A stretch of DNA of 64,000 nt from Candidatus Amesbacteria bacterium RIFCSPLOWO2_01_FULL_48_25 (GTDB lineage Bacteria > Patescibacteriota > Microgenomatia > CAZETR01 > Amesbacteraceae). The notes under the pieces are model-generated. The model was not told the origin of the DNA. It did no database searches and saw nothing but the letters and a program-made list of their open reading frames with translations. The stretch is taken from contig MEXN01000007.1 in NCBI GenBank assembly GCA_001773695.1, positions 47,388 to 111,387 on the forward strand, written 5' to 3'. The position numbers and the translations under genes are program-made. Position 1 is the first letter of the stretch; the number at the start of each line of letters is the position of its first letter. Positions 14,827-57,413 of this stretch are shown here, piece after piece.

Positions 14827-15498
14827 TTAGTTTACCAGTTCGGCGGTGGCTACGAAGCGGCGCCAGTAAGTGCCTAGGGGGACGCAGGTGACGAGGGTTA
14901 GCTGCCTTTTCGATTTGTTTTGAGTCAAAACGTCGATTTGAGACGGAGCGACTTCGCGAGTCGATTTGATCAGATATTTGTAAGTGACTGAGTCGTATTT
15001 AACTGTAATTTGGGCGCCAACTTTAATCTCGGGCAGGGGATTAAAAATGGTCAGGGGATTTCCTTCCCGATATAAATAGGGCGAGGACGAGTGGCCGAAA
15101 ATGACGACGTTTCCAGATTCTCCGGGAAATGCCGTACCGGGAAAATGAACAGCGCCTTTTTTTAAGTCGACGCTATTAACTGAAACCGGAATTCCGTTTA
15201 GACCTATATCTGGAATCGATAAAGCAAAACTGGTTGATTTGGCTGCGGACGGCTTCTGGGGGGTGGACGCCGGAAACCAGTTGGTGGCTTGGGTGAGATC
15301 GGCTGTGGGCATCCCTTGGGGATAAATAATCAGGAACGGCCGGCGACCGGAGGGAACCGTGGGGTCGATCAGGCGGGACTCGGGTGAAAAATAATATTTT
15401 ACCTGGGCGGAAATTATAGGAAAAGTGGCGAGGCCAAGCAAAGCCAGCCCTAGGCTGAAAAGCACGAAACCCAGCGCCTTTGGACGGATAAGAGTCAT
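14827..15498 (-). CDS. Sortase family transpeptidase
   Basis: N-terminal TM segment. VIFGHS supplies the catalytic His. TLVTCVP supplies the TLxTC catalytic Cys motif. Confidence 0.8.
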   Translation of the reverse strand: MTLIRPKALGFVLFSLGLALLGLATFPIISAQVKYYFSPESRLIDPTVPSGRRPFLIIYPQGMPTADLTQATNWFPASTPQKPSAAKSTSFALSIPDIGLNGIPVSVNSVDLKKGAVHFPGTAFPGESGNVVIFGHSSSPYLYREGNPLTIFNPLPEIKVGAQITVKYDSVTYKYLIKSTREVAPSQIDVLTQNKSKRQLTLVTCVPLGTYWRRFVATAELVN

Positions 15499-17574
15499 TT
15501 ATGGAGTCTGGATCGAGACGGTGATATGTCCAGGGAGACGAGGGAGAAAGACAATGGGGTCCGGCAAGGGTAAGCTATAAGTAATTTGGGCACCAGTGAC
15601 GCCGGGATATGAATTGAGGTGGTTTCTGGCCCAGGCGATATTTTTGCCCGCGATCTGAGAGACAATTTGGCTAGAGTCGACTTGAGGCGTAAACCGGGCA
15701 GAAACATTAGTAAATACCGTATTTTCAGACCCGGTAGAACCACGCACTGAAAAACGATAATTTGTCAACTGCCCCAGTTGATAGTTATCGGGGATTTGAT
15801 CTTGCAACTTTTGCTGGACAAGCTCTTCCAGGTTGGATCTGGATACGACCGGGCTTTGGGCTTTAAGAGTGAGCTTGTAGGTGATTTCATTGGCTTCATC
15901 TCCTGTTTTGTGATTTAATTCTTCAGATGTGGTTTGGCTTGTGAAGGTATCCGGGACCAAGATCTGGTCGGGGGTTAATTCTTCGGTAATTTTGGCTTGA
16001 AGAGCTTCGCGAAGTTGGGACATGAGGGTGGATTTGAGCTGGGAAATATCCTCCTGAGCCACAACCCGAGCTTCCCTACTTGAGCCGCCCGAGAGGGCAG
16101 CCTCATTTTTGGCCACCACGTCCAGCTGAGGATAAGTGCCAACACGAAACTCAGTGCCGGCTGTAAGGTTGCCATCAGAGCCAATTTGAGAAGCGGTGAT
16201 CTTGACTGTGACACGGCCTGGTTGGTAGGAATTGGGGTCGGCGGTACCTGAGGCAGAGGCTACCAAGACGCTTGAGTCGGTTGTGAATTTTAGGCTCGTC
16301 GGGGAAGTCAGCAGCGTGCCCGCGGGTAAGTTTTTGACGGTGCTGGTGCCATTTATTATGGTGACAGATCCGGAAGCTGGCTCGCCAACTACTTTGGATC
16401 CGGTGGTAGGAGCGGATTTGGAATCGGATGCCGAGGTTTGTACAAAACTGCCAGTTGTATCGAATTCGGTTGACAAATCCAGGGGAGAAATTTGCAATTC
16501 GACCTTGGCGGATGGTAGATAAAGCGTAGCTAAAACGAGGGCGGCCAAAATGGTAATTATGCCAATCCCCCAAAAAACTAGCCCGAGACGGGGGAGTGTT
16601 GGCCAAGATATGGTAAATGATGGTAATTTGAATTGAGGAAGTTTTAGCTTTGGCAAAGTAAATCGCTTTGATGCGGGGGAGAGCTCATTTTTGGGAGGAG
16701 GGGGAATGGAGGGAGAAGGCGGGGAATTTGGGTTCGGAGCATTTACTCCGGGAGAAAATCCAAGTTGATCTGGAGAAATTTCTAGCGAAGTTTCTTCTCC
16801 CGTGGTGATTAGACCTATGGCTTGGGCGACTTCGGAACCACCTGCCAGGGCAATGGCCCGAATTACAAAATCTTGGGGTAGGGACTCCACCTTGGGAAAA
16901 TGCAGAAATGGCAATCTGGTTTGGGGGGATTGCCAGGGATGAGAGAGTAATTGTTGGCGAATGCTTTCTAGATCCTGGCTGGAATTGTAAAGCAAAATCC
17001 GAGAGGGGAGCATGTCTGTGGGTAAGAGTCGGGAAATGCCTTCGATAACATCGTCTGTGAGCTTGGGGCTGCGACGGACAGTGTGAGTTCCGGTAATCTT
17101 ACCCAAACGAACCAATGAGACTTCCAGATATCCGGCCCAGAAACCCAAGAGGATGGCCGTGGGGGGGGCATTTTCCTGGCTTTGCAAAAAACGGACGGTG
17201 GCTTCGGGGATAACCACATAACCAACTGGTTTGAGAGCCAGTTTGTCAAAAAGCGGACGCAGTAAATTTACTTTGGCGGGATGGATTTTTTCCGTTTCCA
17301 ACCAATCCGGTAATAGTCCTAAAATGATTTTTTCGGGTTGGGTTTTACCCTGGGGATCGAGGTGGTTGCCTGCGTCTGACAGGCTTTGATCGCTGGCTGT
17401 GACCAAGCTATCAGCAGACGAATCGTCCCAGGCGACGCTGCTTCCTACGGCTATAACTTGAGGCCGATTATTGATGACTGCCCAGACGGCACCTTGCACT
17501 TGGCCGTGGCCAATCTGCAAGGCGAAGAGGTATTCGCGTTTGGGATTGGGGTGATTTAAGAAAGGCAGGGTCAT
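15499..17574 (-). CDS. Large membrane-anchored protein. Cytoplasmic N-domain with a tentative actin/FtsA/PilM-like phosphate-1 motif, Pro-rich linker, one TM segment, Ser/Thr-rich extracytoplasmic domain.
   Basis: 691 aa. The motif LFALQIGHGQVQGAVWAV resembles an ASKHA phosphate-1 motif. The linker is PNPNSPPSPSIPPPP. The TM segment is LGLVFWGIGIITILAALVLATLYL. Confidence 0.5.
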   Translation of the reverse strand: MTLPFLNHPNPKREYLFALQIGHGQVQGAVWAVINNRPQVIAVGSSVAWDDSSADSLVTASDQSLSDAGNHLDPQGKTQPEKIILGLLPDWLETEKIHPAKVNLLRPLFDKLALKPVGYVVIPEATVRFLQSQENAPPTAILLGFWAGYLEVSLVRLGKITGTHTVRRSPKLTDDVIEGISRLLPTDMLPSRILLYNSSQDLESIRQQLLSHPWQSPQTRLPFLHFPKVESLPQDFVIRAIALAGGSEVAQAIGLITTGEETSLEISPDQLGFSPGVNAPNPNSPPSPSIPPPPKNELSPASKRFTLPKLKLPQFKLPSFTISWPTLPRLGLVFWGIGIITILAALVLATLYLPSAKVELQISPLDLSTEFDTTGSFVQTSASDSKSAPTTGSKVVGEPASGSVTIINGTSTVKNLPAGTLLTSPTSLKFTTDSSVLVASASGTADPNSYQPGRVTVKITASQIGSDGNLTAGTEFRVGTYPQLDVVAKNEAALSGGSSREARVVAQEDISQLKSTLMSQLREALQAKITEELTPDQILVPDTFTSQTTSEELNHKTGDEANEITYKLTLKAQSPVVSRSNLEELVQQKLQDQIPDNYQLGQLTNYRFSVRGSTGSENTVFTNVSARFTPQVDSSQIVSQIAGKNIAWARNHLNSYPGVTGAQITYSLPLPDPIVFLPRLPGHITVSIQTP

Positions 17575-30834: not shown

Positions 30835-30946
30835 ATGGCATTAAAAAATTAAGAGATAGGGCGAAAGAGAGTATCACAACTGAACCGTCTTTCGTTAATT
30901 CTCTTGTTTAGGATGGAGCTATTATACAACTAAATATAAGATATTT

Positions 30947-31171: not shown

Positions 31172-31190
31172 ACTTTAATGAATTGAGCTA

Positions 31191-31219
31191 TTGTAGCATG
31201 GGGCCGCGGTAGATTTTGG
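31191..31219 (-). repeat. Orphan duplicate of the last 7 codons plus stop of the nrnA-like gene (the intact tail is at 32465-32493), 28 of 29 nt identical
   Basis: On the minus strand both copies encode KIYRGPMLQ*. Confidence 0.85.
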
Positions 31220-31262
31220 TCGGTTTGACATAAGTCTATATGCAGTGTAGTATCCGGCTTAA

Positions 31263-31718
31263 ATGTTGGATAGATTGAAAACGGAGGACACACGGCTCAA
31301 AGAGGCAATTGCTTTGTACGAGCCGGTGAGGGTTTCCTTCGCGAGGCTTATGGAACAAGAGGGAAAGAGGATAGACCTGGGGTGGGGACATACTCTTATT
31401 ACTGGTGCTGGGAGCAGATATGTGTGGGAGTGTTCAGGGGTTCAAGTGGGTGGTGTGAAAATATCAATGGAGACGAGTGACGATGATAGGTTTGGTGGAG
31501 ATTTAAGAAGTGCGACACTTCACGTTGTGGTGTCTAGGGAATGGGCTAGTGAGAAGTTTGATCTGGAACCGACTGGGCATGTTGGAAGCGGGAGACTAAA
31601 CTCTAGGAGTGTGGGGAAGATGGCGGAAGATTTGAAAGAGCTGGCGGATGAAATTAACCAATACTTAAATCCTCGCAAAAACATTCATAGGAATTATGGA
31701 GGGGCAGGGTCGAGGTAG
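31263..31718 (+). CDS. Hypothetical protein
   Basis: 151-aa ORF on the opposite strand inside a minus-strand block. No family recognised. Confidence 0.4.
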   Translation: MLDRLKTEDTRLKEAIALYEPVRVSFARLMEQEGKRIDLGWGHTLITGAGSRYVWECSGVQVGGVKISMETSDDDRFGGDLRSATLHVVVSREWASEKFDLEPTGHVGSGRLNSRSVGKMAEDLKELADEINQYLNPRKNIHRNYGGAGSR

Positions 31719-31726
31719 ATCTAGCT

Positions 31727-31785
31727 AAAGTTCTTTTGCTAGATATTGCACCAGACATATACTCTTCCTGTGGGCGGATCTTCTC
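31727..31785 (-). repeat. Degraded duplicate of the 3' end of the 76-aa gene (intact copy 32232-32408). It carries an internal ~114-nt deletion bounded by a CTAGAT microhomology.
   Basis: An 18-nt block and a 41-nt block are identical to the 32232-32249 and 32368-32408 segments of the intact copy. Confidence 0.85.
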
Positions 31786-31834
31786 AACCAGCTTTCGTTA
31801 GTTCTCTTGGACAGGTGTGATTGTATCACCAAAG

Positions 31835-32179
31835 CTAAGCTTTGAAAAGATTCTTTACAAACACCTCTACTCTTTCGCTGGGTTCATTCGCTCGCGCGCA
31901 GTGAATTAGGGCGGCTGCAGCAAGAGCTTCCAGTTCTCCACTTATATTTTCTCGCATTATAGTTACTGAGTCGTACCCTTCTTGTGGATGATTTATAAGG
32001 AAATTAATACCGGTTACATAGGCGACAAAAGCAACTTCAACGTCAGGCATACCTTTAATTTTTTCTGCAATTTGTAATTGGTCGGGTTTGTCGTACCCAG
32101 CTAATTTAGCCATGTCTTCAAGATCTTGGGCAGTGACACGGATTTCTTCTTTTCTTGCGGGCCTACCTTTTCGTCTCAT
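31835..32179 (-). CDS. Hypothetical protein
   Basis: 114-aa ORF, flanked by a degraded copy of the 3' end of the neighbouring 76-aa gene. Confidence 0.4.
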   Translation of the reverse strand: MRRKGRPARKEEIRVTAQDLEDMAKLAGYDKPDQLQIAEKIKGMPDVEVAFVAYVTGINFLINHPQEGYDSVTIMRENISGELEALAAAALIHCARANEPSERVEVFVKNLFKA

Positions 32180-32229
32180 TGCGCAATTATAGGATATTTT
32201 TGGTTGTTGTCAATTATTGCAACCTGGAG

Positions 32230-32460
32230 TCAAAGTTCTTTTGCTAGATCTGGATAGATTTTCGTGAGAAATGGACAGTTCTTACAATCGTTGGTCTTTG
32301 GTTCATTCACCCAATATATTTCATCAGGAGTCAGGTGCCGGTTTATGCAAAGTGAGGCAGTGGCTAGATTGCACCAGACATATACTCTTCCTGTGGGCGG
32401 ATCTTCTCCAAAAAGTTCAGCGTAAGGGAACTTGTCCTTTTCAAAAACGAGCTGGCTCAT
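32230..32460 (-). CDS. Hypothetical small Cys-containing protein (possible Zn-binding)
   Basis: Start placed at Met (MSQLVFEK...), one nt after the stop of the upstream gene. Cys in WCNLATASLC and DCKNC. Confidence 0.4.
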   Translation of the reverse strand: MSQLVFEKDKFPYAELFGEDPPTGRVYVWCNLATASLCINRHLTPDEIYWVNEPKTNDCKNCPFLTKIYPDLAKEL

Positions 32461-32461
32461 T

Positions 32462-33367
32462 TTATTGGAGCATGGGGCCGCGGTAGATTTTGGGGGCGTA
32501 CCAGTCGGCGGGGGCGGTAGTAGTGGGGCCGGGAGTGTCTTTGAATTCGGCAACGGCTTCGGCAGTGCCCGGCGAGGTGGGAATGGAGCCGGCTGGGAAA
32601 TCTGCAGCTGAAATGGGCGCTTGCCTGCGGGCGCCACTCTTCATAAGCCGGGCGGCAGTTTCGAAAGTGCCGGCAGAAATGGCGGGGTGGGTGAAATTCT
32701 GGGTAGCGCCTTCTAAGCCTATAAATAGATTGGTGGCGGCATCGGCAGAAAAAGGAAGACTTAAGGATTCTATAATATACGTCGTGACTTCGATTAATGA
32801 AGTGGCGGTAGGGTCATAGAATTGATGGGGGGTGTAGTTTTCGGCTGGGGGGCGGGTGGTAAGAGAGACCAGCTGGCGGTGGGATTGAAGAAGATCGCGA
32901 CTATTTTCGTAAATTTGACCAAGATCCGAAAGACGATCGACTCCGACTAGAAAAATAGTATCGGCTTGGCTTGCTGGAATATATTTGAGTTTTTGATGAT
33001 CAATAAGGGGAGCGTCGGGTTTGGGAGAGACTACCAGGCGCAGTTCCCCGGACTCGATGTGGTAACTGATCTTATCCACGTGCTCGGTCTGTTCGGGAAA
33101 GGAAATAATTAGATTCCTACCTCCAAAATGGGTGGAAACCGAGTCCACTCCAACCAGGCGGTTAAACTCGACCGTCATGGGGTCGGGGCAGCCGACGTGG
33201 GTGGATTTGCCAACTTCGTCGCAAATTAGTTTCAGGGCCAGAGCAGTGGCTACAGCGTCAAGGCTGGGATTTTGGGGAAGCAAAAAGGCCAGGGATTGGG
33301 AAGAGGTGAGCAGACTCTTTAGTTGGGTAGTATCGGGATCGGCCATGAAATTAAACCTCGACGGCAA
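32462..33367 (-). CDS. DHH-family protein, NrnA-like but catalytically degenerate, with a disordered C-terminus in place of DHHA1
   Basis: Collinear with NrnA. It retains the conserved block NLFIGLEGATQNFTHP. The DHH position reads YHIE and the DxD motif is not conserved. The gene sits in the infB-(rbfA)-nrnA syntenic slot. Confidence 0.5.
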   Translation of the reverse strand: MPSRFNFMADPDTTQLKSLLTSSQSLAFLLPQNPSLDAVATALALKLICDEVGKSTHVGCPDPMTVEFNRLVGVDSVSTHFGGRNLIISFPEQTEHVDKISYHIESGELRLVVSPKPDAPLIDHQKLKYIPASQADTIFLVGVDRLSDLGQIYENSRDLLQSHRQLVSLTTRPPAENYTPHQFYDPTATSLIEVTTYIIESLSLPFSADAATNLFIGLEGATQNFTHPAISAGTFETAARLMKSGARRQAPISAADFPAGSIPTSPGTAEAVAEFKDTPGPTTTAPADWYAPKIYRGPMLQ

Positions 33368-37234: not shown

Positions 37235-37329
37235 AGCTGCGGGAGATATTAAAATTACTTCCTACTTCGACAAAAATTTTGAGAAGATGGGGTTTGAGGT
37301 GTTATAATTTCGGCTATGTCTGCATTTGA

Positions 37330-37491
37330 ATGGCGAGGGCGGCAATAAAACAAAAGAATGAGTTTCGGGAGAGAGCACAAAATGCTGAAAGGAAGGAGTG
37401 GAATCTGGTAGTATTGGGGGGCACGATAAGCGGTGTTTTCGCTGGAGCTGCTGTGTATCTGGCTAGTACGCATATTTTCGGGTGGTGGTAA
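37330..37491 (+). CDS. Hypothetical 53-aa tail-anchored membrane protein. Not in the ORF track; found by manual translation.
   Basis: ATG at 37330 reads MARAAIKQKNEFRERAQNAERKEWNLVVLGGTISGVFAGAAVYLASTHIFGWW*. An extended -10 TGtTATAAT lies at 37292-37300. Confidence 0.25.
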   Translation: MARAAIKQKNEFRERAQNAERKEWNLVVLGGTISGVFAGAAVYLASTHIFGWW

Positions 37492-37541: not shown

Positions 37542-39692
37542 ATGGCGGCGGGAGATATTAAGACTACAAATCGGGATGTGCCGTTGGATCGGGTGCGGAA
37601 TATTGGGATAATTGCCCATATCGATGCGGGGAAGACGACCACCACGGAGCGGATTTTATTTTATACCGGAAAGAGCTACAAAATCGGAGATATCGATGAG
37701 GGTGACACCCAAATGGATTGGATGGCGCAGGAAAGGGAGCGGGGAATTACGATCGTTTCGGCGGCAACGACGACATTCTGGACTGTGACCGACCCCAATT
37801 CCCCGGTGGGCAACGAATCGTTTAGGGTAAATATTATTGACACACCGGGACACGTGGACTTTACGGCGGAAGTAGAACGATCTTTGCGGGTATTGGACGG
37901 TGCGGTGACAGTACTAGATGCAGAGGAGACGGTGCAGTCACAAACTGAAACGGTATGGCGACAAGCTGATAAATACAAGGTTCCGCGGATTATTTTTGTG
38001 AATAAAAACGACAAACTGGGAGCCAATTTTGAGGGAACAGTTAAGGCTATTATCGAAAGACTAGGAGCAAACCCTGCAGTGATGGCATATCCTATTGGGG
38101 CTGAACAATCATTTCGCGGAGTAGTATTACTATTGGAAAAGAAGGCTTTGATTTGGCAGGGAGACGAGACGGGGGCAAAATTTACTGAAGAAGAAATACC
38201 GACTGACATGGCTGAAGTGGTAGAAAAGTGGCGGGCAAAACTAATTGAGCAGATTTGTGAAACGGATGACACTCTTTTAGAAAAATTTCTGGCGGGCGAA
38301 GAGCCGACCGTACCAGAGTTGAAAGCGGCAATGCGCCGGGCGGTAATTGCTTATAAATTGGTACCGGTCTATGCGGGCGCGTCATTACGCAACAAAGGAG
38401 TGCAGCCGATGCTGGATGCTATCGTAGAATACCTGCCCTCGCCTGTGGACATAGACCACGTCAAAGGAGTGGCGCCAACAACGGGTGAGACAGTTTTTCG
38501 AAAAACCGTGGTGGAGGAACCGTTTTCCGGGCTGGCTTTCAAAATCCAGACCGATCCGCATGTGGGAAGATTGACTTATGTGCGGATCTACTCCGGAAAA
38601 CTTTCGGCCGGGCAGTCGGTGTGGAATGCTTCCAAGCAGAAAGAAGAGCGGATCTCCCGGATGCTTCTCATGCATGCTAACAAGCGAGAAGAAATTGATG
38701 CGGCTTATGCGGGGGAAATCGTGGCCTTGGTCGGACTGAAAGAGGCAACAACGGGAAACACCCTATCCGACCGGAGTCACCCGATAATATTGGAGTCGAT
38801 AACATTTCCGGAGCCGGTAATCTCACTGGCCATCGAGCCCAAAACTAAATCCGACCAGGAAAAGATGGGGTATGCCCTAAACAAATTATCGGATGAAGAT
38901 CCGACGTTTAAGATCAAGACCAATCACGAGACTGGGCAGACGATCATATCCGGAATGGGGGAACTGCATCTGGAGATTATCGTGGACCGGATGAAGCGGG
39001 AGTTTTCTGTGGAGGCGGATACTGGGGCGCCCCAGGTGGCATATAAAGAGACTATTAAAAAGATGGCCGAGGGAGAGGGAAAATATATCCGTCAGTCCGG
39101 TGGGCGGGGGCAATATGGACATTGTTATATCCGGATTGAACCACAAACCCGGGGAGTTGGATATGAATTTGTGGATGCGATTAAAAGCGGGGCGATTCCG
39201 AATGAATTTATTCCGGCTGTAGAAAAGGGTGTGCGTGAAGCGATGGAGAATGGTGTACTGGCTGGGTTTCCGACTGTAGACATGAAGGTGACTTTGTACG
39301 ATGGGACTTATCACGACGTCGATTCCTCGGAAATGGCGTTTAAGATTGCCGGGTCGATGGCATTCCAGCATACGGCCAAAATAGCCGACCCAGTTTTGAT
39401 TGAGCCGGTAATGAAGGTGGAAGTATCCACCCCAAACCAGTTCATGGGAGACGTGATTGGGGACTTGTCCTCAAAAAGGGCCCAGATATTGGGAACGGAC
39501 AAGCGGGGGCATCTGACGATTATTAATGCCTATGTCCCCTTGGCCGAATTGTCCGGGTACGCGACGAAGTTACGGTCGCTGACCCAAGGGCGGGCGTCAT
39601 ATTATATGGAGCCGTCGCATTACGAAGAAGTGCCGCGAAACATTGCTGAGGGAATAATCGCCAAATCTGGTAAAATGGCTGCAAATGGCTGA
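37542..39692 (+). CDS. fusA: Elongation factor G
   Basis: 716 aa. [15 protein letters not shown] and DTPGHVDF. Ends with a TGA stop. Confidence 0.97.
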
Positions 39693-55233: not shown

Positions 55234-55374
55234 CCCCAAACAGACCGTGGAAAAAACAGCCAGGGTTCCTATTCTGTCGGCTTTTCCCCAGTCAATTGGT
55301 TTCCTACCGGCAGTTCTTTTTATTATTTCTTCTTGGATGTCGGGACGGATAGGGATAATCTCTATAACTTTAGT

Positions 55375-55542
55375 TTACCACTTCGCCTTTTGAAAAAGCT
55401 GAATCCAGAGTGGAGAGGTGAGCATTGCAATGACTCCAAGAAATGCAGCTCCCAAAATTGCTGCTTCAGCTATATTATCTCGCAACGAAAACTCTCTTAC
55501 ATTTTTAAACACTTGCTTCCAGAAATCTTTTTCGGCGCCCAT
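55375..55542 (-). CDS. Hypothetical 55-aa small membrane protein immediately downstream of dnaK. Not in the ORF track.
   Basis: ATG lies 3 nt after the dnaK stop. It reads MGAEKDFWKQVFKNVREFSLRDNIAEAAILGAAFLGVIAMLTSPLWIQLFQKAKW*. Its last 16 nt duplicate the dnaK 3' end. Confidence 0.3.
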   Translation of the reverse strand: MGAEKDFWKQVFKNVREFSLRDNIAEAAILGAAFLGVIAMLTSPLWIQLFQKAKW

Positions 55543-55544
55543 GA

Positions 55545-57413
55545 TTAATTTACCACTTCGCCTTCTTCGGGTTTCTTGGTGTCGGTTTTTTCTTCAGTGG
55601 GAGGCGTTTGGGTTTGGTCTTGCTGTTGGTACATGCTGGAACCTAGGGCTTGGAGGGAGTCCATGAGGTCTTTGGATTTGGCTTCCAAGTCTTCTTTGGT
55701 ACCGGTTTCTAAGATATCTTTTAAGGCTTTAATTTTTTCTTGAACTGGGTTTTTTAGATTTTCGGGTGATTTATCTGCATCTTTGAGGGTTTTTTCGGCG
55801 GTGAAGATTAAACCATCAGCCTGATTTCTGGCCTCTATTTTGGCTTTTTTTTCAATATCCTCTGATGCGTGCACTTCAGCTTCCTGGCGCATGCGCTCTA
55901 CTTCTTTTTCGTCCAAATTGGTGGAGTTGGTAATGGTAATGTGTTGAATTTTATTGGTAGCTTTGTCTTTGGCGGAAACTTTTAAAATACCGGATGCATC
56001 GATATCGAAAGTAACTTCGATTTGGGGGATACCGCGGGGGGCGGGAGGAATGCCGTCAAGGATAAAGCGGCCAAGGGTCTTGTTGTCCGTGGCCATAGGC
56101 CGCTCGCCCTGGAGGACATGGATTTCGACAGATGTTTGGGTGTCAGCTGCGGTCGAAAAAACCTGGGACTTGGAAGTGGGGATGGTGGTGTTTCTCTCGA
56201 TGAGGGAAGTCATTACGCTACCTAGGGTTTCAAGGCCCAGGGTAAGCGGAGTAACGTCCAGCAAGACTACGTCTTTGACGTCTCCGGTTAATACCCCGCC
56301 CTGAATGGCGGCGCCGACGGCCACTACTTCGTCCGGATTAACGGAGCGGTTGGGCTCTTTGCCAAAGAAGGATTTGACGACCTCGATAACTTTTGGCATC
56401 CGGGTCATGCCGCCAACCAAAACTACTTCATCTATTTCTTTGATGTCTTTTTTGGCGTCTTTGAGGCAGGCCTTGACAGGAGTTATCGTCTTTTGAATGA
56501 GTTCATCGACAATCGTTTCGAGCTTGGACCTTGTAAGCTTGAGTGTGAGATGTAAGGGGTTGCCGTCTTTTTGGGTAATGTACGGCTGGTTGATTTCCAC
56601 TTCGACTGAAGAAGAGAGTTCTATTTTGGCTTTTTCGGCGGCATCCCGAATGCGCTGGAGGGCATGGGAATCTTTTTTGAGATCTACTCCATGCTCGCTT
56701 TTAAACTCACCCACGATCCAGTCCATGATTTTTTGGTCGAAGTCGTCACCTCCCAAATGGGTGTCACCATTGGTGGCTTTGACTTCAAATACACCATCGC
56801 CCAGCTCTAAGATAGAAATATCAAAAGTACCACCACCCAAATCATAGACCGCCACGGTGTGGGAATTTTTCTTGTCCAGGCCGTAGGCCAGAGCTGCAGC
56901 CGTAGGTTCGTTTATTATTCGTTCAACTTTGAGACCGGCAATTTCCCCAGCTTGCTTGGTGGCCTGGCGTTGGGAATCGTCAAAATAAGCCGGGACGGTG
57001 ATGACAGCCCGGTCTACAGAACCTCCCAAATAGGCTTCGGCGTGGGCTTTCATGGTTTGTAAAACTTTGGCGGAAATTTCCTGGGGGGTATAGACCTTGC
57101 CATCGACTTCGACGCAGGCCATGTTGTCTTTTCCGGAAACTATTTTGTAAGGCACCATATCCATGGTGCGTTTGACTTCGCTGTCTGTGAATTTGCGGCC
57201 CATTAGTCGTTTGATGGAATAAATGGTGTTTTTGGGATTTAGGATCATTTGGCGCTTGGCTACATCGCCAACCAGATTCTTGACGGGTTCTACAATCGAA
57301 GGAGTGACATTTCTGCCGGTATCGGCCGCAGTAATAACCTTGGGAGAGCCGCCTTCCATGACGGCCACACAAGAGTTGGTAGTACCTAAATCAATGCCGA
57401 TTATTTTGCTCAT
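55545..57413 (-). CDS. dnaK: Chaperone DnaK (Hsp70)
   Basis: [22 protein letters not shown] and the rest of the Hsp70 signature. 622 aa. Confidence 0.97.

Follow-up and report, generated by a model that had tools for sequence, protein, structure and literature searches.

A duplicated dnaK tail in Candidatus Amesbacteria marks a candidate recurrent docking site for small gene cassettes

The dnaK gene discussed here lies in a 64-kb stretch (64,000 nucleotides of contig MEXN01000007.1, hereafter the window) of the genome of a Candidatus Amesbacteria bacterium, a member of the Patescibacteria or Candidate Phyla Radiation (CPR) whose genome has repeatedly been assembled from groundwater metagenomes. 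The end of this gene is found again, on the same strand, a short distance downstream, and the two copies enclose DNA that occurs nowhere else in the window. We refer to the proximal and distal copies of the dnaK tail as T1 and T2, to the insert between them as X and to the DNA after T2 as Y; the fetched dnaK loci of relatives carry L-numbers (L015, L089 and so on), and WIN stands for the window among them. The features of the locus, including two small open reading frames (ORFs), are the following.

55545..57413, minus strand: dnaK, 622 aa (HSP70 Pfam match, E=7e-248), the last gene of an hrcA-grpE-dnaK operon
55545..55564, minus strand: T1, the proximal tail copy AAGGCGAAGTGGTAAATTAA, functional end and stop codon of dnaK
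55390..55544, minus strand: X, 155 nt of unique inserted DNA with no second copy in the window
55375..55542, minus strand: ORF-A, 55 aa, with a polar N-terminal part and one C-terminal hydrophobic helix
55370..55389, minus strand: T2, the distal tail copy AAGGCGAAGTGGTAAACTAA, which keeps GEVVN-stop in the dnaK frame and ends in AAC TAA
55210..55365, minus strand: ORF-B, 51 aa, an unannotated tail-anchored membrane protein, seen by alignment with a 51-aa ORF of L089
54382..55233, plus strand: a convergent gene for a class I S-adenosylmethionine (SAM)-dependent methyltransferase (Pfam Methyltrans_SAM), the conserved right-hand border of the slot

The original prediction had described a 16-nt direct repeat of the dnaK 3′ end, and we recovered it exactly: the 16-mer TTTACCACTTCGCCTT occurs precisely twice in the window, at 55374-55389 and at 55549-55564, and the latter copy consists of the last codons and TAA stop of a gene whose HSP70 match identifies it as dnaK. 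With a tolerance of up to two mismatches, chance alone predicts 0.05 matches, and two or more were obtained in 0 of 100 shuffles. Around the 16-mer, the match extends to a repeat of 20 nt with 19/20 identity (55370-55389 and 55545-55564), which reads AAGGCGAAGTGGTAAA[T/C]TAA on the dnaK strand and covers the last six codons of dnaK plus its stop codon; the period is 175 nt, X accounts for the 155 nt enclosed, and both copies translate to GEVVN-stop in the dnaK frame. The AAC TAA of T2 is the tail allele of the nearest relatives, and T1, with AAT, carries the odd one. We also searched for the last 24 nt of each of the 84 genes of the window in up to 3 kb of DNA downstream of it. A near copy was found for only two of these tails, that of dnaK (4 mismatches in 24) and that of a 301-aa gene at 32462..33367 (2 in 24), the remaining ones requiring at least 7 mismatches in 24.

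Taken by itself, the 16-mer is unremarkable in this window, and it is position and context that make the dnaK-tail repeat notable. Another exact 16-nt direct repeat lies inside dnaK (55834-55849 and 56620-56635), where it merely encodes the peptide KAKIE twice with the same codons, and for that reason a bare 16-mer pair is not evidence of an event. A similar ending was also seen in a sortase gene (14827..15498, minus strand), whose end, ...AELVN-stop (14827-14846), matches the dnaK tail at 16 of 18 nt; since that gene is a sortase, we took the resemblance to be coincidental and not a C-terminal motif common to both proteins.

The C-terminus of DnaK, EEGEVV[N/S]-stop, is conserved across Amesbacteria, where DnaK identity is 81-91%, and the distance from the dnaK stop codon to the next conserved gene (the convergent SAM methyltransferase gene or rpsK) varies from -5 to 2938 nt among relatives. 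Among the relatives, which the original prediction had proposed to compare, some lack the insert: in L015, L018, L110 and L111 dnaK abuts the next gene, its stop codon overlapping that of the methyltransferase gene. In other lineages the slot holds small membrane ORFs or genes for DUF5671, RRM, YbaK-like, PIG-L, LamG, SDH protease and 23S-IVP proteins, and in some of them toxin-antitoxin pairs (Gp49/HTH_3 and DUF4258/DUF2283), while no recombinase was found among the cargo ORFs downstream of dnaK in ~24 lineages. Directly after dnaK we observed DUF4258 with DUF2283 at L108:4251-4731 (probably the same at L091:3864-3963), DUF2283 with a tail-anchored ORF at L112:1777-2348, and Gp49 with HTH_3 at L016:5909-6538. 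A clean pair of filled and empty sites is provided by L103 and L097, which differ by a 603-nt insertion; the uninterrupted dnaK-rpsK junction of L097 aligns continuously with the distal copy of L103 and with all the DNA after it. The window's own empty site is matched only partly, as the tail is joined directly to ORF-B in no relative. In L107 (4840-4869), dnaK has an in-frame TAA (AAA to TAA) eight codons before the conserved AEEGEVVN-stop tail, and its DnaK would be without this tail unless the change is a sequencing error.

A same-strand copy of the gene's own tail follows dnaK in six lineages, with periods of 175 nt in WIN, 603 nt in L103, 501 nt in L108, 592 nt in L112, 393 nt in L089/L121 and 670 nt in L101, whereas reverse-strand controls never gave fewer than 6 mismatches in 21. 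The six cases are scattered over the DnaK tree, beside lineages without the duplication. They represent 6 of ~34 Amesbacteria lineages as against 0 of ~115 other dnaK loci (p=1e-4), in which no gene at all showed such a tail duplication, and within the Amesbacteria loci dnaK alone of 188 genes has one. On the right, the repeat ends at the stop codon in 6/6 cases; on the left, its boundary varies (~20-40 nt). The distal copies retain lineage-specific codons, for example KKA versus KKP, or EVIN. Over the last seven codons, T1 and T2 show 13 codon differences, of which 10 leave the amino acid read in the dnaK frame unchanged, an excess of silent changes with a probability of 3e-5 if an unconstrained copy mutated and of 0.003 if both copies drifted; this fits T1 and T2 being two alleles of a coding tail, one of which would have arrived with the DNA of a related lineage. 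The cargos, in inserts of 155-650 nt, are mutually unrelated apart from DUF2283; no integrase, transposase, phage or conjugation gene was found within the six inserts, and no matches in viral contigs. A chance origin of the dnaK-tail repeat is rejected by the shuffles, the scan of 84 tails, the reverse-strand controls and the significance tests. Judging from these alignments, the dnaK tail appears to mark a recurrent and clade-specific docking site for small gene cassettes.

The closest relative of the window is L089 (91% for DnaK, 92% for the methyltransferase). Its dnaK ends in T1, after which come 366 nt unrelated to X, a diverged tail copy and a 51-aa homologue of ORF-B. The distal tail, PNEAEVVN-stop, has 5/9 codons identical to T1 and supplies, in frame, the last codons of a 94-aa ORF (L089:4984-5265; also in L121), whose ending resembles the conserved C-terminus of DnaK. 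The resemblance could be accidental (a chance of one frame in three) or reflect a common C-terminal motif. Because L089 shares T2 and ORF-B with the window and has different slot DNA between its tail copies, the slot has a history of turnover, with T2 and ORF-B staying, rather than one simple insertion. Neutral sites between the window and L089 are saturated and the synonymous diversity of the dnaK tail is ordinary; on these grounds, the window's T2 (19/20) either postdates the split from L089 or was refreshed after it.

The 141 nt after T2 had been described as a spacer. Instead, alignment with L089 and the pattern of substitutions there indicate a conserved 51-aa gene. ORF-B and its L089 counterpart align without gaps at 51% identity and 76% positives (E=3e-21), and their differences fall 16/13/36 over the three codon positions, with a proportion of nonsynonymous differences (pN) of 0.30 against a saturated synonymous one (pS) of 0.84. 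The ORF-B frame is the only one open in both the window and L089. Given the gap-free homology, the codon-position bias, pN below pS and the single open frame, Y is a real gene, ORF-B, under purifying selection, and it is the firmest new gene of the region. Its product has a value of 2.02 on the Kyte-Doolittle (KD) scale, its start codon is the non-canonical ATA in the window and ATG in L089, and its 3′ end overlaps that of the methyltransferase gene by 24 nt. The reading frame is that of ORF-A, from which it is separated by the TAA of T2 plus three codons, and a read-through fusion of ORF-A and ORF-B is conceivable. A collection of 15 billion proteins holds no entry for ORF-B, which shows that real small genes are missed by annotation.

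X has no second copy in the 64-kb window or in any fetched locus, and no similarity to the loci of relatives; a proposed homology with the slot content of L089 was not significant. No Rfam family was matched beyond sub-threshold noise, a known RNA or stable structure was rejected (fold z-scores of ~+1 on both strands, no better than shuffles), and an inverted-repeat search of 55340-55600 revealed no terminal inverted repeats at the boundaries of X. The 55-aa tail-anchored membrane ORF that had been proposed for this interval, our ORF-A, is indeed present with its C-terminal hydrophobic helix (KD 2.08, residues 24-42), though the evidence that it is coding is weak and it is an orphan. Its ATG lies immediately downstream of dnaK, 2 nt past the stop codon and not 3 nt as first given. 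Its stop, as predicted, is supplied by the second repeat copy: the TAA sits within T2 in another frame, and the last four codons and stop (KAKW-stop, in ...QKAKW-stop) come from T2. In searches of 5.8 billion clusters and, exhaustively with HMMER, of 1.84 billion representatives, the sole homologue of ORF-A, at 98%, comes from the same species; there was no Pfam, PHROG or viral-contig match and no remote homologue in a word-indexed search. Homology between ORF-A and ORF-B was considered and was not significant. The coding score of ORF-A is the best of the six frames, yet it falls at the 8th percentile of true 55-codon gene windows and is equalled by 21% of accidentally open off-frame windows. 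Type I toxins and small hydrophobic toxic peptides have their own promoter, an overlapping antisense RNA and a recognisable family; ORF-A encodes a small peptide with one helix, and no promoter-like site, Rfam match or Pfam/PHROG-type family was found for it. The case for ORF-A is thin: it looks like a species-level orphan with a weak coding signal, whose function is unsupported.

The reading that we favour, with modest confidence, is that a small DNA cassette integrated exactly at the dnaK end, by recombination inside the conserved tail, and left the repeat behind. An incoming small DNA, most simply a circle, would have borne the last 20-40 nt of the dnaK of a related lineage, up to the stop codon, together with its cargo, and a single (Campbell-type) crossover with the chromosomal dnaK tail would have inserted the whole molecule with one tail copy on each side. 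T1 would then complete dnaK and T2 would remain joined to the original downstream DNA. The right edge would lie at the stop codon since homology between lineages extends no further, and the length of tail carried in would determine the left edge. In the window the cargo would comprise 155 nt that may encode a membrane peptide of 55 aa, co-transcribed and translationally coupled with dnaK, and elsewhere it would be toxin-antitoxin genes or other small ORFs. We infer a circular intermediate and an enzyme, which could be that of host RecA-type recombination or a trans-acting recombinase; recA, recX and ruvX are encoded within the window. In these compact genomes the dnaK stop codon touches or overlaps the gene that follows, so that only tail-duplicating insertions would spare both genes. 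Single crossover of a circular molecule duplicates the homology segment on both sides of the insert, and homology-facilitated illegitimate recombination (HFIR), which joins one-ended homology with an illegitimate join, usually yields a deletion (PMC3240628). Under this model, the junction of the excised chromosome would read ...GAAGAAGGCGAAGTGGTAAA[C/T]TAA + AGTTATAGAGATT and that of the circle ...CAGCTTTTTCAA-AAGGCGAAGTGGTAAA[C/T]TAA-TCATGGGCGCC.

A number of observations weigh against such an integration. The statistic on silent sites is based on only 13 codon differences, and the odd allele is T2, not T1, in L108 and L112, where a rule that the proximal copy is the donor's fails. The tree does not distinguish gain from precise loss. 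A length of 20 nt is at or below that usually held efficient for RecA-dependent crossover. No donor with X beside dnaK is known, X is an orphan, and neither an excised circle nor an empty-site allele of this species was seen: all of the ~23 assemblies carry the insert, in variants at least 99.5% identical and of the same structure throughout, which led us to reject strain-level polymorphism for it. The empty-junction pattern also had no match in a metagenome collection, a weak negative as that collection seems not to return this species. Indeed, when genome and metagenome contig collections were queried with the window DnaK, the own species was not returned and the best matches were at 88-91%, although exact-protein look-ups find the species in JGI and ENA assemblies; pattern negatives in these collections say little.

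A larger, integrase-bearing prophage or other integrative element that has decayed is the competitor that we take most seriously, and we still find it unlikely. The dnaK 3′ end would have served as its attB, its attP would have contained a replacement tail, and an internal deletion would have left attL, a few hundred bases and attR. Its architecture would be the classical one, with direct repeats of the target 3′ end, silent differences and a single clade-specific site, and toxin-antitoxin genes are typical passengers. However, integrase, phage and conjugation genes are present in 0/6 cases and no recombinase is among the cargo of ~24 lineages; the inserts all measure 155-650 nt and their cargos are unrelated save for DUF2283; the repeat length varies from case to case, and viral contigs gave no match. 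Quite improbable, in our estimate, is the view that the origin is the same as in the favoured reading and that T2 has since been maintained, either as an initiation or coupling context for the gene originally after dnaK or through gene conversion with T1, in which case the 19/20 identity would be silent on age. T2 directly precedes ORF-B in both the window and L089, and the two are common to these genomes despite saturated neutral sites; in L112 the ATG of a same-strand ORF lies 4 nt after T2, and in L089 the 94-aa ORF takes its C-terminus, in frame, from the distal tail. Against maintenance, T2 is followed by a convergent gene in L103 and L108 and can have no coupling role there, the synonymous diversity of the dnaK tail is ordinary, and the L089 copy has diverged to 5/9 identical codons. 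The same ordinary diversity led us to reject a sequence-level constraint on the dnaK tail as the cause of T2, and a role of the tail as a Shine-Dalgarno element is unsupported, as it has no clear Shine-Dalgarno sequence and the use of such sequences is weak in this genome.

We give little credence to a target-site duplication, whether it was made by a transposase or arose when a staggered double-strand break was filled in and foreign DNA was ligated into it. With such an origin the copies would have been identical at birth and would have drifted since. Insertion at a staggered cut also produces direct repeats around a unique insert; here it would have to do so with no terminal inverted repeats, transposase or second copy of X, with a variable length of 20 to ~40 nt that is above that of usual target-site duplications, with a right edge at the stop codon in 6/6 cases, and with an excess of silent differences that is unlikely under drift (p=0.003 to 3e-5). 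An insertion sequence or miniature inverted-repeat transposable element was rejected on similar grounds, there being no terminal inverted repeats, no other copies of X and a repeat of 20 to ~40 nt that is not fixed in length. Tandem duplication or slippage of the dnaK end and its downstream DNA followed by divergence, or mere coincidence, we consider extremely improbable. Slippage at gene ends does occur, as shown at the unrelated locus L020, where a genuine tandem duplication of 40 nt spans a stop codon, but the local alignment of X with Y is no better than that of shuffles (p=0.81), and X is unlike the 3′ region of dnaK and the rest of the window.

The only other tail with a near copy in the window, that of the 301-aa gene, belongs to an island next to rpsO and infB, which had been predicted to bear the same signature. 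This was confirmed by a 32-nt tail copy and by an ORF that begins right after the host stop codon.

32462..32493, minus strand: proximal copy, the last 10 codons plus stop (KIYRGPMLQ-stop) of the 301-aa gene 32462..33367
31220..32461, minus strand: inserted DNA with ORFs of 76 aa, 114 aa (an orphan) and 151 aa (antisense), and with a truncated second copy of the first of these
31188..31219, minus strand: distal copy, 32 nt, 1274 nt downstream, with two differences from the proximal copy

Both differences between the copies are silent in the host frame (CTC/CTA and TAA/TAG). The 76-aa ORF starts 1 nt past the stop of the 301-aa host gene, and the 114-aa ORF has homologues in the same species only. 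Among the ~616 genes of the other fetched loci, the tail duplications consisted of one plain 40-nt tandem repeat and one palindrome similar to repetitive extragenic palindromic sequences. The arrangement of tail, unique insert and tail occurs at 2/84 gene tails of the window versus 0/616 background genes (Fisher p=0.014), and it is enriched in this genome. The island (31188-32493) is also internally rearranged: a 41-nt segment at 31745-31785 is the same as 32368-32408 and an 18-nt segment at 31727-31744 the same as 32232-32249, the two together forming the truncated second copy of the 76-aa ORF with an internal deletion of 118 nt. A further copy (85%) of a 27-nt element that lies upstream of rpsO, at 30880-30906, is found at 31783-31809.

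Insertion in the 3′ end of a gene with delivery of a replacement end is known from e14 and phage 21 in icd of Escherichia coli and from ICESt1 and ICESt3 in fda of Streptococcus thermophilus. As in those integrative elements, the target gene is intact at dnaK, the displaced last codons lie at the far end, the differences are mainly silent and one housekeeping gene is used clade-wide. Those elements measure kilobases and carry their own integrase, whereas the inserts here are of 155-650 nt, have a recombinase in 0/6 cases and are flanked by repeats of variable length. Examined for attL and attR, dnaK and the 301-aa gene both display direct repeats of the target 3′ end and a gene reconstituted at one junction, and none of the six inserts contains an integrase. 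Cis-mobilisable elements (CIMEs) are att-flanked DNAs without recombination genes that are mobilised by the integrase of a related element, and the dnaK inserts resemble them in having direct att-like repeats around cargo without mobility genes. They differ from CIMEs in that no cognate integrase-bearing element is known for the dnaK-tail site (none with the same att sites was found in the fetched flanks) and in that identity ends exactly with coding homology, which suits homology-driven as well as site-specific recombination.

The minimal mobile elements (MMEs) of Neisseria are variable cassettes that lie between two conserved genes and are swapped through transformation and homologous recombination (PMC3787668). 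Likewise, different lineages have different whole-gene cassettes, without mobility genes, in the slot that separates dnaK from the methyltransferase gene or rpsK; MMEs, however, are exchanged by double crossover in the flanks without duplication, whereas here the tail of a flanking gene is duplicated in six lineages, which points to a single crossover or its equivalent. The microcin H47 island of E. coli has no integrase, is bordered by short direct repeats and excises without a site-specific recombinase (PMC3191183, PMC5426353), and with this island and with single-crossover integration of plasmids (PMC3240628) the dnaK inserts share short direct repeats, the lack of a recombinase and a duplication of the single-crossover type. 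They are unlike both in that the repeats are gene tails and recur at one conserved gene end across a clade. The dnaK-tail pattern is real, non-random, recurrent and clade-specific, and it is not a new category of system.

A bolder and rather doubtful proposal is that Amesbacteria have a minimal form of cassette mobility without an element-encoded integrase, in which 20-40 nt of the tail of an essential gene (dnaK, perhaps also the 301-aa gene) would act as a portable attachment or homology site, and tail-insert-tail circles would excise and re-insert at related dnaK tails. If this were true, it would account for turnover of toxin-antitoxin modules and micro-membrane proteins, and it would give ultra-small CPR genomes, where convergent genes share stop codons, a separate way to gain genes. 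Were host recombination alone to suffice, the idea of the minimal mobile element would extend to single-crossover cassettes in uncultured episymbionts. The genomes of CPR bacteria are tiny and dense and contain many lineage-specific small ORFs of unclear origin, for which the dnaK end offers a concrete and reused entry point. A duplicated tail that ends at a stop codon is also a footprint of accessory gene acquisition that can be searched for genome-wide.

Two further observations come from other parts of the window. Codons 2-9 of fusA recur 309 nt upstream at 20/23 positions (37236-37258 and 37545-37567), and between the two copies lies a tail-anchored ORF of 53 aa (37330..37491), which follows a TGTTATAAT box. 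We considered this 5′ end as a third example and rejected it as no better than background, since 1.3% of genes score equally and the match may be due to chance. Finally, the upstream neighbour of the sortase gene (15499..17574) encodes a Baseplate_J-like domain, which is unusual beside a sortase.

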